A stretch of 4,369 nucleotides of DNA from a virus (IMGVR_UViG_2585427751_000011:1-4369), one strand, 5' to 3'. Counted from the first letter of the stretch, positions 1-4,369 are shown. Program-made: numbers and translations. The notes: generated from the sequence alone by a model not told the origin.

Positions 1-228
1 ATCAAACTCCATTTGATATTAACTTTTGTTTATATCTTTATGTGGTTTATTTCAAAAATAACTCAATAAAAAACAAATAGATACAGAGCAAATTTAAAAA
101 TTTGAAATTAACCAGTTGATATTTACTAAGTTAATATCTAACATATCAAACATACACTAGTGAGTAACTCAATAGAGTAGCACACATGAGTAATAAAGTT
201 TGCCATAGAAAGTACACAGGGGGCCATT
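1..228. promoter_or_regulatory. AT-rich leader upstream of ner; putative early operator/promoter region of a Mu-like element
   Basis: No ORF in the six-frame track here. Strongly AT-rich compared with about 50% GC in the downstream coding DNA. Contains repeated TTGATAT/ATATCAA motifs (13-19, 116-122, 143-149) and the inverted repeat ATCAAA-n5-TTTGAT (1-17). In phage Mu the operator/Pe region lies immediately upstream of ner. Confidence 0.4.
116..144 (+). promoter_or_regulatory. Candidate sigma70-type early promoter (-35 TTGATA 116-121, 17-bp spacer, -10 TAACAT 139-144)
   Basis: Hexamers match consensus at 5/6 and 4/6 with a 17-bp spacer, oriented toward ner. An IHF-consensus match (TAAccagTTGATA, 109-121) overlaps the -35, and ACTAAGT (125-131) lies in the spacer. 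Such matches arise easily by chance in AT-rich DNA. Confidence 0.2.
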
Positions 229-474
229 GTGAGTCTTATTGAAGATTGGTCTTCCGCCGATATAAAGGCAGCCTTAGAAAAACGCGATACCAATTTGTCA
301 CGTTTATCAAGGGAAAATAATTTGCAGCCTAGGACTTTGGGTAATGCTTTGCGAGTTCCCTACCCTAAAGGTGAAAAGATAATTGCTAGGGCTATAGGTG
401 TAGAGCCACAGGTTATTTGGCCTACTAGATATGAACGACGTGCGCGGAGGAAATATGTGGGTTGCAATGACTGA
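229..474 (+). CDS. ner: Ner-like DNA-binding transcriptional regulator (Mu Ner / Nlp family)
   Basis: 81-aa ORF with a GTG start preceded by AGGGGG (218-223) at 5-nt spacing. The translation (…DWSSADIKAALEKRDTNLSRLSR…TLGNAL…YPKGEKIIARAIGVEPQVIWPTRY…) aligns by eye with Mu Ner (…DWHRADVIAGLKKRKLSLSALSR…TLANAL…WPKGEQIIANALETKPEVIWPSRY…). Position directly upstream of a MuA-like gene matches Mu gene order. Confidence 0.85.
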   Translation: MSLIEDWSSADIKAALEKRDTNLSRLSRENNLQPRTLGNALRVPYPKGEKIIARAIGVEPQVIWPTRYERRARRKYVGCND

Positions 475-2539
475 ATTGATTTCATTCAGTGACCTACCTA
501 GTTCTTTGGCAGGTCTGCACAAAAAAGCAAAGAGGGAAGCGTGGAAAACGCGGCTAAAACCAGGGGTAAAAGGGAAAGTTTTAGAGTGTGAAATAGGGGC
601 TTTGCCTTTAACTGTTCAGCAGGCAGTACGCGAACGCTATGCCCTGCAACTGATGACGCAAAAAGCCGATGAATCACCGGCTCCGGTAGTGACAAAGGCC
701 AGGCGCTCACCTGCCGTGGTTGATGCGGTGGAGGCATATCGCGGATCACCACAACTGATGCTCGAACGCCTCAATGCCCTGACTGAAAACCAGCGCCAGG
801 TGGCTGATGCACGAATCGCGATCGTCAGCGAAGTTCTGAAAGTCGCGCAACAACCTGGTTTCAGCTGTGCGAAGGCTATCCGGTTTATCGTTGACAACCT
901 GGCACGTTCGCAACTGGACGAGCGCATTGTGGCAATGGTTGAGACGGCGAACGCCAAAAAGGGAAACAGCCGTGCGTTGAGTGAAATCACGCTGAAACGC
1001 TGGATTGCAGCCTTTAACAAGGCGCAGAACGCCGCTGAACGCCTGCTTTTGCTGGCACCTGGTAAGCGCCAGGAAATAAAAGCCGAAGATATTAACTGGC
1101 TGCCCGAATTTCTGGCGCAGTATCGCCAGTCAAACGGCCGACCAATGACCGAGGCTTACGAGGATTTTGTCGCTGAATGGCAGCACCGGCACGCTGATGA
1201 GCCTTATATGCTCGATATCATGCCGTCTTACGACACCATCCGCCGCGCAATGAAGAAACTGCCGGAAGTGGTGAAACAAAAAGGCCGGGTGACCGGCAGT
1301 GAATACCGCCAGCTTGAGGGATTCACGCGCCGCGACTGGTCCAGAATGCCGGTGAATTATGTCTGGATTGGTGACGGTCACGGCATGAAGCTGAAATGCA
1401 GGCACCCGGTTCACGGGCGGCCATTTGCACCGGAAGTGACCTTTGTTATCGACGGTGGCACGCGCTTTGTGGTGGGCTGGAGCCTTGACCTGGCTGAAAA
1501 TGTTTTCGCCGTAGCCGGTGCCATACAGTACGGTATTCGTAATCACGGCAAACCGTTTCTGTATTACTCGGATAACGGTTCCGGGGAAACCGCCGACATC
1601 CTGGATAAGGAAGTTGTGGGGATCCTGCCGCGACTGGGGATTAATCACCCAACCGGGATTGCCGGTAACCCGCAGGGACGGGGCATTATCGAACGGCTTA
1701 ACCGCACGTTACCGATGCGTATAGCCCGTAAATACCGCACCTATTTCGGGAAAGGTGCAGATCGCGAGACGTTACGCAAAACCAACCGCGATTTACGCTC
1801 GGCATTTACCGCCCTGCAACAGGGCAAACGGCTGAACGCCCGGCAACAGTCAGCGATGCGTGATTTACCGTCCTGGTCTGAACTGATTGATGCCATTCGT
1901 GATGGCGTTGAGTGGTACAACAACCGGCCGCACGATGAATTACCCATGAAGCCGAACGGGAAGCATTACAGCCCGGCGGAGTTCAGAAAAAAACGCCTGG
2001 CAGAAGAGGACACGGAAATTGAATGGCTGTCCGATGTTGAGCTGCGGGATATGTTCCGGCCAATGGTGGAACGCCCTGTAAGACGCTGTGAAATACGCTG
2101 GCTGAATAATATTTACTACGCGCCCGAGCTGAGTGATGAGCATGGCCGCAAGGTGCTTATCAGCTATGACATTCATGATGCCGAACGAATTACCGTACGT
2201 CGCCCGGATGGCAGCGTGATTTGCGAGGCGGTATGGGACGGCAATAAACGCGAAGCCTTCCCGGTCAGCGCGGAATACTACAAACAGCAGCAACGCCTTA
2301 AAGGTATGCGTAAACGCGCAGAGGAAAAAATCCGTGATGCCGAGGATGAGGTTGTCAACGTGCTGGAGCACAAGCCGCAGGAGCCCTGGCTGGAAAACAT
2401 ATACCGCCCTGTGGGTAATACGGTGACCGTTCAGCAACCTGCCGTTGATGATGAGCCTGATGAAGAATACGAGCGTAATTTCCAGCGGGGATTGCAGTTG
2501 CTCGAAGCGAAATTAAAAGAAAATGACCCTCTGGCCTGA
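455..2539 (+). CDS. A: Mu-type DDE transposase (MuA homolog); ORF is open from 431 but ATG 455 is the better-supported start
   Basis: Long ORF (702 aa from 431, 694 aa from 455). N-terminus from 455 (MWVAMTELISFSDLPSSLAGLHKKAKREAW) aligns with Mu A (MELWVSPKECANLPGLPKTSAGVIYVAKKQGW). GGAGG at 446-450 precedes ATG 455. Core contains DDE-like motifs: VWIGDGHG (D codon 1373-1375), YYSDNGSG (D codon 1571-1573), GIIERLNRT (E codon 1691-1693). C-terminal IYRPVGNT…DDEPDEEYER resembles the MuA C-terminus IFRPSGNT…DDEYETERDEY. Overlaps the ner 3' end by 20 nt. Confidence 0.9.
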   Translation: MWVAMTELISFSDLPSSLAGLHKKAKREAWKTRLKPGVKGKVLECEIGALPLTVQQAVRERYALQLMTQKADESPAPVVTKARRSPAVVDAVEAYRGSPQLMLERLNALTENQRQVADARIAIVSEVLKVAQQPGFSCAKAIRFIVDNLARSQLDERIVAMVETANAKKGNSRALSEITLKRWIAAFNKAQNAAERLLLLAPGKRQEIKAEDINWLPEFLAQYRQSNGRPMTEAYEDFVAEWQHRHADEPYMLDIMPSYDTIRRAMKKLPEVVKQKGRVTGSEYRQLEGFTRRDWSRMPVNYVWIGDGHGMKLKCRHPVHGRPFAPEVTFVIDGGTRFVVGWSLDLAENVFAVAGAIQYGIRNHGKPFLYYSDNGSGETADILDKEVVGILPRLGINHPTGIAGNPQGRGIIERLNRTLPMRIARKYRTYFGKGADRETLRKTNRDLRSAFTALQQGKRLNARQQSAMRDLPSWSELIDAIRDGVEWYNNRPHDELPMKPNGKHYSPAEFRKKRLAEEDTEIEWLSDVELRDMFRPMVERPVRRCEIRWLNNIYYAPELSDEHGRKVLISYDIHDAERITVRRPDGSVICEAVWDGNKREAFPVSAEYYKQQQRLKGMRKRAEEKIRDAEDEVVNVLEHKPQEPWLENIYRPVGNTVTVQQPAVDDEPDEEYERNFQRGLQLLEAKLKENDPLA

Positions 2540-2546
2540 AATAAAA

Positions 2547-2576
2547 AAATAACCCGAGCGGCGACTCAGGTTATTT
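2547..2576 (+). terminator. Stem-loop with flanking A/T runs between A and B; possible weak intrinsic terminator or attenuator
   Basis: AAATAACC (2547-2554) pairs with GGTTATTT (2569-2576), with inner pairs 2556-2558 to 2565-2567 and a 6-nt loop. Sits 8 nt after the A stop codon and is followed by GATT. The stem is AT-rich and therefore weak. Confidence 0.25.
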
Positions 2577-2614
2577 GATTAAACAAAGGAACTACACAAA
2601 CGCGAGGTAATAAT

Positions 2615-3136
2615 ATGACCGATATAAACGATGTAATCAAGACCATTGATGAACTTATTGATGGCGGCGTGCTGACGCAGTATGCCATCGCCAGAGAGGC
2701 GGGAATTTCCGACGGCACATTATCGGCTTTCCGCAAGGGGAAATATAAAGGCGATAACGCCGCTGTGGCTGCTTCCCTGCGCTCCTGGTATGAGAACTGG
2801 AATAAACAAAGCGCACTGCCGGAACCGCCGCAGTTTGTGGAAACTCAGACAGTCCAGGAGCTGCGCGCACTGTTTCAGGCGGTTCGCCTGATGGGCTGTA
2901 TTAACGTTATTGTGGGCGTACCGGGTGTGGGTAAAACGGCCACTGCCCGTAATTACTGCCAGGAGCAACCAAACACCTGGATGATCACCCTGTCACCCGC
3001 GCACTCCAGCGTCACGGAGTGTCTGCTGGAGCTGGCCGATGCGCTGGGGATTGATTACACCCGCGCGAACAAAGGGGCATTATCTGTAAACGGTGAGCCG
3101 GGCTTACGGCCCGGCCCCTGCGGAGGGCAAATATGA
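2615..3136 (+). CDS. B: MuB-like AAA+ ATPase (target DNA activator), 3'-truncated: N-terminal HTH and Walker A only; probably non-functional
   Basis: 173-aa ORF with GAGGT (2604-2608) 6 nt before the ATG. The HTH region YAIAREAGISDGTLSAFRKGKYKGDN matches Mu B (QIALESGLSTGTISSFINDKYNGDN); PEPPQFVETQTV is nearly identical; Walker A is GVPGVGKT; WMIT…ECL.ELA matches. Similarity ends after …KGALS (about 3085) and the ORF stops at 3134-3136. Mu B is about 312 aa and continues with the Walker B region (…LVIIDEADHL…); no such continuation exists in any frame downstream. Confidence 0.8.
   Translation: MTDINDVIKTIDELIDGGVLTQYAIAREAGISDGTLSAFRKGKYKGDNAAVAASLRSWYENWNKQSALPEPPQFVETQTVQELRALFQAVRLMGCINVIVGVPGVGKTATARNYCQEQPNTWMITLSPAHSSVTECLLELADALGIDYTRANKGALSVNGEPGLRPGPCGGQI
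3097..3115 (+). other. Perfect GC-only hairpin (7-bp stem GCCGGGC/GCCCGGC, 5-nt loop TTACG) at the point where MuB homology ends
   Basis: Base pairs 3097-3103 with 3109-3115 read directly from the sequence. It lies within the last, non-homologous codons of the truncated B ORF and about 18 nt upstream of ATG 3133. Confidence 0.45.
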
Positions 3137-3486
3137 ATGAACATCACACTGTGGCAGCAACAGATGATTCAGGCCTTCAGGTCAGTGGTGACAGTCCTGT
3201 CACGGTACTGGCAGAAGTGCGTTGCAGTCGTGCGCAGTTTCGTCGTGCGGGGTTCCTGTTCATGCGGGGACGCCAGCAGGTTGACGTCACCCCGGAGCAG
3301 CTTGCCCGACTGGAAGCGGAGCCATGCCTCACTGTACGAATACTACAGACGCCTGGTGATGATGCGGGAGCCGTGGCGGGTGTGGTTCATGCAGAGACCG
3401 GTGCAGATTTAGCCGAAGCCGGACAGGATGCTCCCCGGAAAAAGACCGGCAATAACGCCAGACAGGCGAAAAAGGCTCGCGCATGA
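3133..3486 (+). CDS. Hypothetical protein (117 aa), GC-rich, basic C-terminal tail
   Basis: ATG 3133 is preceded by GGAGGG (3122-3127) at 5-nt spacing. Start overlaps the B' stop (ATGA) and the stop overlaps the next ATG (ATGA at 3483-3486). First codon positions are G-rich, as expected for real coding sequence. No family recognised. Caveat: in GC-rich DNA open frames occur by chance; the alternative ORF 3137-3412 is in the same frame as B'. Confidence 0.45.
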   Translation: MNEHHTVAATDDSGLQVSGDSPVTVLAEVRCSRAQFRRAGFLFMRGRQQVDVTPEQLARLEAEPCLTVRILQTPGDDAGAVAGVVHAETGADLAEAGQDAPRKKTGNNARQAKKARA

Positions 3487-3719
3487 ATTACGCCAACGGT
3501 TACACCGAAACGCAGGCCGACAGTGGCGCGGTGATGTATGCGCTTTATTTCTCCTGCGAGGAAATGATCGCACCGCTGACTGATATCAGCTCGCTGGATG
3601 ATTTCCTGCGCCATTACGAAACCTTCACCGAACCGGAAGGCACACCGGAATTTAAGGCGCACATCAGCCTGCCAGGTGCAACCGCCGCCGGTGAAAAAGC
3701 CGGACCGTCAGAGGAATAA
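3483..3719 (+). CDS. Hypothetical small acidic protein (78 aa)
   Basis: ATG overlaps the upstream stop (ATGA); AAAGG lies 7 nt upstream. Translation has about 14 Asp/Glu against 3 Lys/Arg. The next gene's SD (GAGGAA, 3711-3716) is embedded in its 3' end. No family recognised. Confidence 0.45.
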   Translation: MNYANGYTETQADSGAVMYALYFSCEEMIAPLTDISSLDDFLRHYETFTEPEGTPEFKAHISLPGATAAGEKAGPSEE

Positions 3720-3722
3720 CAG

Positions 3723-4010
3723 ATGACAACCATTTTTATCAAACCCGCGCCGGGATGCCTGATCCGCGATCCGGACACCATGAAACCGCTGGCGCAGGAG
3801 GGAGAGGAAAAACCCTTCACCCCGTTCTGGTGCCGCCGTCTTAATGACGGGGACGTCATTGTGGTGGAAAAAGCGGCTGAAGCAGCACCGGCAGCAGCGT
3901 CTGCAACGACTGATGCCGCCGGAAAACCCGCGGGAGCGGCAGCAGAAAAACCTGCGACTGAAAAACCCGCGACTGAAAAACCCGCAGCATCAGACAAGGG
4001 GACGTCCTGA
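3723..4010 (+). CDS. Small protein preceding the tail sheath gene (recalled as DUF2635 / Mu gp38-like); C-terminal Ala/Pro/Lys-rich tail with (EKPAT) repeats
   Basis: GAGGAA sits 8 nt before ATG 3723; the stop overlaps the sheath ATG (TGATG at 4008-4012). The N-terminal half (MTTIFIKPAPGCLIRDPDTMKPL…FWCRRLNDGDVIVVE) resembles, from memory, the short conserved ORF found just upstream of sheath genes in Mu-like tail modules. The C-terminus is low-complexity, encoded by the tandem repeat. Confidence 0.6.
   Translation: MTTIFIKPAPGCLIRDPDTMKPLAQEGEEKPFTPFWCRRLNDGDVIVVEKAAEAAPAAASATTDAAGKPAGAAAEKPATEKPATEKPAASDKGTS
3945..3989 (+). repeat. 15-bp tandem repeat, about 3 copies (GAAAAACCYGCGACT), in frame, encoding EKPAT-EKPAT-EKPAA; degenerate copy at 3921-3935
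   Basis: Units at 3945-3959, 3960-3974 and 3975-3989 read directly. Copies 1 and 2 differ at one base; copy 3 diverges in its last 4 nt. Confidence 0.8.
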
Positions 4011-4369
4011 TGATTAACTTTGATTATATCGGCGATAACAATCGCATTCCGCTGGTACAGATTGAAATCAATAATTCAATGGCCGTGACCGGCACTCCAC
4101 CACAGCGTCAGGCGGTACTGTTGTTTGGTCAGGCTGCAATGAAAGACACCACCATTCAGGGGCGCGGTCAGCTTGATGTACCAGTACGTATTACCCGAGC
4201 TTCACAAGCAAGAGAACTCTGGGGGCGAGGTTCCATGATTGCACTGATGGTAGAGGAATTTATCGCCATTAACCCTGACACAGAGTTATATGCCATTGCA
4301 CAGGGGGCTGGAACAGGTCAGTCCAGGGCATGCGTGATGAATATCATTGGAACAGCATTGGCAGACGGG
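4010..4369 (+). CDS. Phage tail sheath protein, N-terminal part (Mu gpL-like); continues beyond the window end
   Basis: ATG 4010 with AAGGGG 8 nt upstream; open to the window end (120 codons, no stop). Translation MINFDYIGDNNRIPLVQIEINNSMAVTGTPPQRQAVLLFGQ…RASQARELWGRGSMIALMVEEFIAINPDTELYAIA… fits the remembered N-terminal pattern of Mu-like sheath proteins (…FDNS.A…LL.GQ…A…FG.GS.LA.MV…N…ELW…). Confidence 0.65.
   Translation, partial: MINFDYIGDNNRIPLVQIEINNSMAVTGTPPQRQAVLLFGQAAMKDTTIQGRGQLDVPVRITRASQARELWGRGSMIALMVEEFIAINPDTELYAIAQGAGTGQSRACVMNIIGTALADG

Follow-up and report, generated by a model that had tools for sequence, protein, structure and literature searches.

Tail-gene remnants directly behind the transposition genes of a defective Escherichia coli Mu-like prophage: a probable deletion scar

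Introduction

Why do tail genes lie immediately behind the transposition genes of a Mu-like phage, and would transcription from the early promoter reach them? The question is raised by positions 229 to 4369 of the window, the whole 4,369-nt stretch of viral DNA analyzed here. The first-pass annotation conjectured that early transcription, if not terminated by the weak hairpin after A, would run into the sheath gene, bypass the late activator of Mu and might serve a domesticated or tailocin-like use. We conclude, with a probability of about 0.85, that this is an ordinary decaying prophage gutted by internal deletions, in which any read-through from early into tail genes is an accidental by-product.

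Gene content and organization

The window covers the left portion of a Mu-like prophage of E. coli that is defective and sits in malX. Every ORF with family support in 229-4369 lies on the plus strand, and the ORFs follow one another nearly contiguously in the order ner, A, truncated B (B'), gp35, a gp36'-'gp37 fusion, gp38 and the N terminus of the sheath gene (Table 1). The co-directional, contiguous layout first described is real, as the whole window, junctions included, is 99.6 to 100% identical to nine independently assembled contigs, which were fetched with the B' protein from NCBI, ENA and Logan and comprise isolate genomes, gut metagenomes and Logan assemblies. All ORFs are indeed on the plus strand, but seven rather than eight are supported (ORF 3137-3412 has no family match), and spacings of 3 nt or less outside the A-B gap hold only approximately. 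The ner and A genes overlap by 20 nt, taking the A start given by RefSeq and the database contigs; the 75-nt A-B gap is as reported; B' and gp35, and likewise gp35 and the 78-aa fusion ORF, overlap by 4 nt (ATGA); a 3-nt gap precedes gp38, which overlaps the sheath gene by 1 nt. The designation of tail genes applies to the last three ORFs only, the gp35 product being a head-to-tail connector complex protein in the Mu annotation (AF083977).

Table 1. Features of the window (positions from its first nucleotide)
Feature	Position	Strand	Basis or remark
Candidate early promoter Pe, TTGATA-17-TAACAT	116..144	+	Consensus match; 85 nt upstream of ner
ner homologue, 81 aa, GTG start	229..474	+	Pfam HTH_35 6.7e-27, phrog_769
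Transposase A, full length, 694 aa	455..2539	+	Pfam Mu-transpos_C, HTH_Tnp_Mu_1; phrog_310 1.8e-205
A-B gap hairpin	2547..2576		Weak on + strand; terminator shape (then T run) on - strand
B', truncated transposition ATPase	2615..3136	+	phrog_296 match ends at residue 157
Deletion junction D1, ATTATC microhomology (6 bp)	3079..3084		BLAST break points, junction alignment
GC-rich hairpin, T-gp35 intergenic origin, 8-bp core stem	3097..3115	+	Fold of 3085-3135
gp35 homologue (HI1506-like), intact, 117 aa	3133..3486	+	Pfam FluMu_N 3e-9, phrog_3622 2.5e-65
Chimeric 78-aa ORF	3483..3719	+	phrog_490 match covers profile positions 125-188 of 190 only
gp38 homologue, DUF2635, 95 aa	3723..4010	+	Pfam DUF2635 9.3e-20; Mu annotation, putative sheath terminator
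Tail sheath (L), N-terminal 120 codons	4010..4369, off window end	+	phrog_5292, phrog_165

In matching contigs, a 168-aa c gene on the minus strand adjoins the left side of the window, divergent from the early genes ner-A-B, an arrangement characteristic of Mu-like prophages. The intact prophage L001 has exactly the same c repressor (168/168 residues) and Ner (81/81); identity to Mu Ner is 53%. Transposase A matches that of L001 at 685 of 694 residues, and its domains (PF09299, 3.7e-17; PF02316, 1.7e-8), Mu-transpos_C and the Mu DNA-binding N terminus, are those of a Mu-type DDE transposase. Over residues 1 to 157, which include Walker A, B' matches the 310-aa B of L013, another intact relative, at every position; its last 16 residues are foreign sequence, and it has neither the Walker B stretch VDEADHL nor anything that follows this stretch in B. 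With 157 of 310 residues and no Walker B, B' does not qualify as a functional AAA+ target-capture protein.

Behind B', gp35 is identical to the L013 protein (117/117) and gp38 nearly so (94/95). The latter contains a 15-nt tandem repeat (3945-3985, 2.7 copies, TRF) and is 90 aa long in other element copies, a 15-nt in-frame difference. The chimeric ORF consists of MNYA, the first four codons of gp36 (J), followed by residues 114 to 187 of gp37 (K), the tail terminator. The sheath N terminus is 44% identical to Mu L, and the window ends inside this gene, at the end of draft contig L009. No Rfam family matched the window at E <= 1.

Internal deletions

BLAST alignment to L001 resolved the window into 1-3084 (L001 20001-23081, 97.5% identity), 3079-3495 (39740-40174) and 3494-4356 (40916-41727), with the same breaks against L013. 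At D1, B codon 157 is joined to the last 11 nt of the major-head gene T, and 16,833 bp are absent relative to L013. At D2 (BLAST break at 3494/3495), 743 bp are absent and gp36 codon 4 is fused in frame to gp37 codon 114. Only one position differs between window 2800-3476 and the corresponding pieces of L013 (3' half of B and T-gp35), and 3495-4369 is 98.9% identical to L013.

In the intact relatives, the D1 interval holds the rest of B, kil, gam, gp16, a Mor/C-family gene, and lysozyme and spanin genes, as well as terminase, portal, protease and T, and all head genes as far as T are lost. Lost with it were the sole Mor/C-family activator gene (L013 9278-9700), a t9.2-like early terminator (L013 9212-9235, intrinsic and clean in form) and the stretch preceding the protease gene, in which PI of Mu lies; in an intact relative, these three keep late expression apart from early expression. 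As the break points show, D1 and D2 together brought gp35, what is left of gp37, gp38 and the sheath gene up against ner-A-B'.

Fuller copies of the element reveal two more deletions beyond the window, which truncated the sheath and removed the tube, tape measure and baseplate genes. The four blocks absent relative to intact prophages total about 25.9 kb, and internal deletions left about 13.1 kb of a prophage once about 38.8 kb long. In full copies the sheath ORF is 523 aa long: residues 1 to 485 are native, and the native last 15 residues are lost and replaced by 38 unrelated to the native C terminus. The genes for the tube, the assembly chaperone and the tape measure are gone, as are N, V and gp46-48; the fibre gene has lost its 5' part, and P retains its last 94 codons (residues 281 to 374), having lost the first 280. 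Both element ends are retained, with the same end sequences as intact E. coli Mu-like prophages. The cargo genes and com/mom are also kept; full copies L002-L004 contain gin, mom and the invertible segment, which is seen in both orientations among copies. Gene order is collinear with Mu (T-gp35-J-K-gp38-L) wherever sequence is kept, the set being incomplete from deletions. The alignments thus indicate that tail genes lie directly behind the transposition genes only because of the 16.8-kb deletion and three smaller ones.

Transcription across the junctions

C-dependent late promoters of Mu combine a -10 hexamer, without a -35 element, with a C site (a 16-bp dyad whose centre is at -43.5), and they require the C activator. 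The canonical Mu cascade runs from Pe through Mor to Pm, and from there through C to Plys, PI, PP and Pmom (PMC2582627; also the Mu record AF083977). The regions equivalent to Plys, PI and PP fall inside D1 or a further deletion, D3, and the Mor/C-family gene falls inside D1. As this sole gene is deleted, expression of the remnants cannot depend on an element-encoded late activator; most simply, any such expression would come from the repressor/Ner-controlled early promoter. The proposed late-activator bypass survives to this extent, and not as a designed rewiring, since the arrangement is a deletion scar.

The candidate early promoter is the sole plus-strand sigma-70-like site in the window, and its placement relative to ner matches that of Mu Pe (AF083977 991-1028; Mu ner at 1099). 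A consensus scan of low power found no plus-strand sigma-70-like site within 229-4369, and the sole plus-strand terminator-like site there (3525-3544) has a fold no more stable than that of shuffled sequence (z +0.49). Both strands together hold 2 promoter-like and 5 terminator-like sites, against shuffle means of 4.0 and 5.4, so that this absence is not statistically meaningful in itself; weak or nonconsensus promoters may occur within 229-4369. The earlier statement that no obvious promoter or strong terminator intervenes is accurate for canonical sites as scanned, but it missed the GC-rich hairpin at 3097-3115.

This hairpin (fold of 3085-3135, -21.7 kcal/mol, z -1.5) sits between B' and the start at 3133, within the B' reading frame; the T stop codon is at 3087-3089. 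TransTermHP predicts a terminator at the corresponding position in Mu (AF083977 20068-20087). An intrinsic terminator, consisting of a GC-rich hairpin and a U tract, was not found between B' and 3133: the hairpin is followed by CCCUGCGGAGGG and went unreported by the scan. It could nevertheless pause or partly stop RNA polymerase. The region of the A-B hairpin (2536-2600, 65 nt) folds at -11.1 kcal/mol (z -2.7) and is flagged by the scan on the minus strand only; in L001 and L013 the stem arms are invariant and the loop is variable. Since these intact relatives must express B through the same stem, the hairpin is not a full stop, in line with the condition set in the first-pass annotation, that the weak hairpin after A does not terminate. 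The first good plus-strand terminator-like site in the full element lies beyond the sheath gene (L004 13596-13615).

We hypothesize that relief of the intact c repressor would let RNA polymerase start at the candidate early promoter, and that the transcript would cover ner-A-B' and continue through gp35 and the fusion ORF to gp38 and the sheath gene, encountering no canonical terminator or new promoter between early and remnant genes; the ATGA-type overlaps would keep ribosomes on the message. The anatomy and the low-power consensus scan make such read-through plausible, and the claim that early transcription runs into the sheath gene can be kept in this conditional form, in that no recognizable barrier lies between the early promoter region and the sheath gene. 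The co-expression would be an accidental by-product of decay, and nothing suggests that it serves a purpose.

It is possible, if rather unlikely, that the remnants are instead insulated, with the hairpin at 3097-3115 or the A-B hairpin stopping most early transcripts, or with the remnants silent or driven by cryptic promoters. The A-B hairpin is conserved, and the GC-rich hairpin with its 8-bp core lies right after the junction, where the Mu record has its predicted terminator. However, the latter has no U tract and lies inside a translated frame, and intact phages must pass the post-T hairpin to carry a transcript from upstream of the protease gene to the tail genes, just as they must pass the A-B hairpin to express B. 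Promoters for the remnants are likewise wanting, with no plus-strand promoter-like site in 229-4369 and no Mor/C activator in the element for late-type promoters.

Distribution and host flanks

Copies of the element come from E. coli (e.g., 4-203-08_S4_C3 and 2-011-08_S3_C2). A Shigella host, considered at first since the window is in no complete E. coli genome, was rejected in view of these source names and of the close match of the host flanks to K-12. The D1 junction was present in none of 5,426 complete E. coli genomes, 232 of which match the junction halves, far apart and never joined. It was also absent by exact scan from a contig collection with one genome per species, whose E. coli representative evidently does not carry the element. 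A literature search returned no paper on a Mu-like prophage at malX. At 99.6 to 100% identity, the copies give no power to tell selection on the surviving ORFs from decay that has not yet set in.

The host flanks are 99.8 to 100% identical to K-12. On the K-12 locus, the left flank ends at 10261, 10189, 9825 or 5431 and the right flank begins at 10529, 10934 or 10364. Near-identical strains carry different host deletions, always abutting the exact prophage ends. Neither a 5-bp target duplication nor matching flanks were seen in the sampled copies, and the duplication of L001 is ambiguous. We read the mismatched flanks as secondary, adjacent deletions, and their position at the exact ends suggests transposase activity. 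Loss of MuB-dependent cis-immunity has been described experimentally (PMC7350765); by analogy, host deletions at the ends of a B-truncated prophage look like a population-level footprint of such a loss.

Contig L011 also carries the D1 junction, here at glpQ, a second location in the chromosome, and combined with a different immunity region. L011 differs from the window by 2.7% overall and at no position over 2800-3476, the divergence being mosaic within A. An old age for D1, considered in view of the 2.7% divergence, was rejected on account of the identity over 2800-3476 and the mosaic pattern.

The element might be viewed as a natural mini-Mu, a nonlethal transposable element in which deletions were tolerated or favoured and tail remnants are passengers: kil, lysis and structural genes are lost, whereas both ends, c, ner, A, gin, com/mom and cargo are kept, and co-resident Mu-like helpers may mobilize it. 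The full-length A, the retained ends and c, the variable host flanks that always abut the exact ends, the two orientations of the invertible segment and the D1 junction at glpQ all fit. However, L011, identical around D1 and mosaic in A, may stem from homologous recombination between prophages, and no simple new insertion with a 5-bp duplication occurs among the copies. We consider this view improbable; it is compatible with a decaying prophage, and under it the layout would still be a deletion scar.

Fate of the tail-gene remnants

Judging by the genes that are left, the products of the remnants would be unable to build a tail. A defensive function of the fusion operon, in which the truncated tail terminator, gp38 and the C-terminally altered sheath, made together when the early promoter fires, act as dominant-negative poisons of assembly in co-resident or superinfecting related Mu-like phages and the remnant is kept for that purpose, is very unlikely. 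Hardly credible is the tailocin-like domestication suggested at first, whereby tail genes under repressor/Ner control would let the host make contractile particles without a late activator. The contiguous, co-directional early and tail genes with no promoter or terminator match between them, and the intact gp35, gp38 and repressor, are what such a system could display, but the sheath C terminus is lost in full element copies, the genes from tube to the fibre 5' part are missing together with the first 280 codons of P, gp37 is cut to its last 74 codons, and no lysis genes are left, lysozyme and spanin lying inside D1. We therefore abandon this proposal in view of the microhomology scars at the junctions and the gutted tail gene set. 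Finally, the chance that the B'-gp35 join is a chimeric contig from collapsed repeats is negligible: the window does end at a draft contig end, suggesting repeated phage DNA in that genome, but the nine independently assembled contigs match it over its whole length with several different host flanks.

Implications

The wider significance of the locus is small. As a lesson for annotation, an odd operon layout was explained by mapping deletion junctions against intact relatives, and a sheath gene at a contig end is not enough to call a tailocin. Of modest interest are the host deletions at the exact ends of a natural B-truncated prophage.

Comparison with known systems

Intact E. coli Mu-like prophages, such as those of AF39 (NZ_OZ547136) and STEC2018-553 (NZ_CP075665) and others in O157:H7 strains, are collinear with the element wherever sequence is kept. 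Compared with them, the element is without the remainder of B and the semi-essential early region, together with the early terminator and the Mor/C-family gene; the lysis genes, every head gene as far as T, and gp36 are also gone, as are most of gp37 and the tail genes from tube to the 5' part of the fibre gene. Mu (AF083977) has the same module order, c / ner-A-B ... T-gp35-J-K-gp38-L, and every window ORF matches a collinear Mu gene at 22 to 60% identity; both have a hairpin or terminator after T. Mu separates early, middle and late operons, whereas that whole interval is deleted in the element, and the A-B gap of Mu is 38 nt long without a hairpin, in contrast to the 75-nt hairpin-bearing gap here.

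With R-type tailocins the element shares a chromosomal, repressor-controlled sheath gene without head genes. However, it has no tube, tape measure, baseplate or lysis cassette, its fibre is incomplete and its sheath C terminus is replaced, and by this gene content it would be incapable of working like one. Like laboratory mini-Mu/Mud elements and Mu deletion derivatives, it keeps the ends, c, ner and A around a large internal deletion, and its loss of B resembles the B-deficient Mu derivatives studied in PMC7350765. Unlike laboratory mini-Mu, it is natural, was produced by four microhomology deletions and still carries leftover connector and sheath genes, the invertible segment, gin, cargo and com/mom.

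Gene layout of the window

The first-pass annotation had placed tail genes directly behind the early operon, in a set of eight ORFs that all lay on the + strand. The strand assignment holds, but the number does not: seven ORFs have family support, an extra ORF at 3137-3412 gave no family hit, and the eighth ORF was not found. Each of the window ORFs matches a collinear phage Mu gene, and the Mu record annotates gp35 and gp36 (J) as head-to-tail connector complex proteins, gp37 (K) as the tail terminator, gp38 as a putative sheath terminator, and L as the tail sheath. The ner and A genes overlap by 20 nt, the A-B gap is 75 nt, and among the later ORFs there are three overlaps (4, 4, and 1 nt) and a single gap of 3 nt. 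After these small corrections, the layout observation is essentially right. Within the DUF2635 ORF, a 15-nt tandem repeat, GAAAAACCCGCGACT (2.7 copies, 3945-3985), encodes a repeated EKPAT in the C-terminal tail; its copy number differs among copies of the element, giving proteins of 95 versus 90 aa.

Features of the window and its matches to the intact Mu-like prophage locus L001
Feature	Window positions	Strand	Match or content
ner	229-474	+	HTH_35, 6.7e-27
Transposase A	455-2539	+	Mu-transpos_C; phrog_310, 1.8e-205
B' (B-like, 173 aa)	2615-3136	+	phrog_296 (DNA transposition), match ends at residue 157
FluMu_N/HI1506-like ORF (gp35)	3133-3486	+	family match
78-aa ORF (gp36-gp37 fusion)	3483-3719	+	match limited to the final third of a 190-position family
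DUF2635 ORF (gp38)	3723-4010	+	family match
Tail sheath, first 120 codons	4010 to window end (4369)	+	family match
L001 20001-23081	1-3084		operator region to mid-B
L001 39740-40174	3079-3495		final 11 nt of T (major head) to start of gene after gp35
L001 40916-41727	3494-4356		3' third of DUF1834 gene through sheath

Origin of the arrangement by internal deletion

Against complete E. coli genomes, megablast matched window 1-3084 to Mu-like prophages as one continuous block at 97.6%, ending there, and aligned to L001 (NZ_CP075665) the window falls into three pieces. The right-hand part is closer to another intact prophage, L013 of E. coli AF39, against which the break points are identical. At the first junction (D1), B and T share the 6-bp microhomology ATTATC, and 16,833 bp separate the two copies in L013. 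At the second (D2, 3494/3495), 743 bp were lost, so that gp36, cut to its first four codons, continues in frame at gp37 codon 114. Residues 1 to 157 of B' are identical to L013 B and are followed by 16 foreign residues, the frame having read through the T stop codon and the T-gp35 spacer to end in the ATGA that starts gp35; B' retains Walker A and is without the VDEADHL Walker B stretch and all beyond. Among 5,426 complete genomes of E. coli, not one has the D1 junction, and its halves are matched in 232 of these but never joined; the B'-gp35 arrangement is thus derived, recent, and restricted to one lineage.

Structure and distribution of the full element

By exact look-up, the B' protein occurs in 62 blocks of the collection and the 78-aa fusion in 82, with Escherichia coli as the host according to source names. 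Three contigs (L007, L009, and L010) are 100% identical to the window. The window end at 4369, after 120 codons of the sheath gene, is the end of draft contig JOQJ01000032.1 (L009); this coincidence suggests a repeat boundary and thus a second Mu-like prophage sharing the remaining sheath gene in that genome.

In the full copies (L002 to L004), the element lies within malX, between uidABC-uidR-hdhA-malI and malY, and measures 13.1 kb versus 38.8 kb for the intact prophage. Outside the window, the element has two further deletions. In D3 (about 5.2 kb), which took out the tube, chaperone, and tape measure genes and N, sheath codon 485 is linked to codon ~281 of baseplate gene P; the resulting sheath has 523 aa, of which the 38 at the C terminus are unrelated. 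D4 (about 3.15 kb) accounts for the loss of V, gp46, gp47, gp48, and the fiber gene's 5' part. The retained right part, comprising the invertible fiber segment, gin, the esterase/DUF1378/DUF826 cargo, and com/mom, is 99.9% identical to L013. The left end (L004 6575; the same in L002, L003, and L013) starts 5'-TGTAACC, matching a Mu-type end. At the right end (L004 19697; the same in L002, L003, and L013), homology stops at ...CGCCGCGCTATA-3'. Phage Mu finishes in CA at this end; the element appears instead to finish in TA, at a position that is approximate, as no copy has a clean target duplication.

Regulatory signals and predicted read-through

In a consensus scan, the sole promoter-like site on the + strand lay at 116-144, ahead of ner, with none in 229-4369; the sole terminator-like site on that strand (3525-3544) folds no better than shuffled sequence. 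This agrees with the initial observation that no obvious promoter or strong terminator lies between the early and tail genes; promoter-like and terminator-like counts are near the shuffle expectation, so the missing signals are weak evidence alone.

Two hairpins lie between A and gp35. The region of the A-B hairpin (2536-2600) folds at -11.1 kcal/mol (z -2.7), and in the intact relatives L001 and L013 the stem arms are invariant and the loop is variable; the 38-nt A-B gap of phage Mu has no hairpin. The structure (2547-2576) has a canonical terminator shape on the - strand, with a 13-pair stem and then a T run, but not on the + strand, which is without a proper U tract, and it may end antisense transcription into A. 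The second hairpin (3097-3115), overlooked in the first-pass annotation, follows T; its GC-rich core is 8 bp long, and a fold of the 51 nt around it gives -21.7 kcal/mol. No U tract follows its stem, and it is now within the translated B' frame.

In phage Mu, early transcription starts from Pe, the early transcript encodes Mor, which makes Pm active, and the middle transcript encodes C, which activates Plys, PI, PP, and Pmom (PMC2582627). According to the Mu record, mor is immediately followed by a terminator, PI precedes I, and PP lies within N. In L013, a clean intrinsic terminator (9212-9235) lies between a gp16-family gene and the sole Mor/C-family gene (9278-9700). That terminator, the Mor/C-family gene, and the region upstream of the protease gene (the position of PI in Mu) are inside D1, and the PP-equivalent region is inside D3. 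These losses leave the retained connector and tail genes without their promoter region, an activator encoded by the element, or the terminator shielding them from early transcription.

Judged from this sequence anatomy, read-through is a reasonable and the simplest prediction: transcription from the early promoter would continue through ner-A-B' into the connector and tail remnants. It is the simplest because L001 and L013, with the stem arms of the A-B hairpin unchanged, need to express B across it, because the hairpin after T has no U tract and is inside a translated frame, and because the next good + strand terminator-like site lies beyond the sheath (L004 13596-13615 in a full copy). The c repressor and ner match those of an intact prophage exactly, so such transcription would obey normal immunity control. 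The conjecture that this reflects a domesticated or tailocin-like use is refuted, as the element fails structurally as a tailocin on every count. Because the gene products are unable to make a tail, we regard co-expression of the remnants as an accident of decay.

Probable transposase and invertase activity

Host flanks vary among copies of the element that are otherwise 99.6 to 100% identical, and they always abut the exact prophage ends. Mapping the flanks of L002 to L010 and L014 to L022 on the K-12 locus (L023; NC_000913.3 1690000-1704000) revealed at least four left flanks, ending at L023 10261, 10189, 9825, and 5431 (the last inside uidA), and three right flanks, starting at 10529, 10934, and 10364; none of the mapped copies has a simple 5-bp target duplication. 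Mu-type intramolecular transposition yields just such independent host deletions, stopping exactly at the ends. The flank pattern looks like the outcome of a transposase making adjacent deletions again and again in a Mu-like element without B, and it fits a loss of the cis-immunity that depends on MuB (PMC7350765). Host deletions ending exactly at the prophage ends suggest past activity of A in the B-less element and, by implication, of the early promoter.

The adjoining uidA (beta-glucuronidase) is split into two ORFs (309 and 295 aa) in most copies (L003 575-2385 and equivalents), so it is probably a pseudogene in this lineage. At about 13200-14570 (locus coordinates), a Caudo_TAP fiber-assembly gene between inverted repeats lies on opposite strands in L002, L004, and L020 versus L003, L005, and L006. 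Gin has thus been active too, having inverted this G-like segment since the deletions.

A second site carrying the D1 junction

The D1 junction and an identical 173-aa B' also occur in a prophage within glpQ (L011; GCA_000700725.1, contig JNMZ01000005.1, 6600-10862). Its immunity region differs (c, 176 aa; ner, 82 aa; A, 696 aa); compared with the window, it has 0 mismatches over 2800-3476, and A is mosaic (2 to 10% per 200 nt). The contig ends inside gp35. Recombination between prophages could account for this occurrence, and so could a spread of the element in its deleted form.

Comparison with known systems

The element belongs, in defective form, to the Mu-like prophages of E. coli. No paper on it was found in the literature, and it adds one more example to a well-known type. 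Functionally, it is similar to a laboratory mini-Mu without B.
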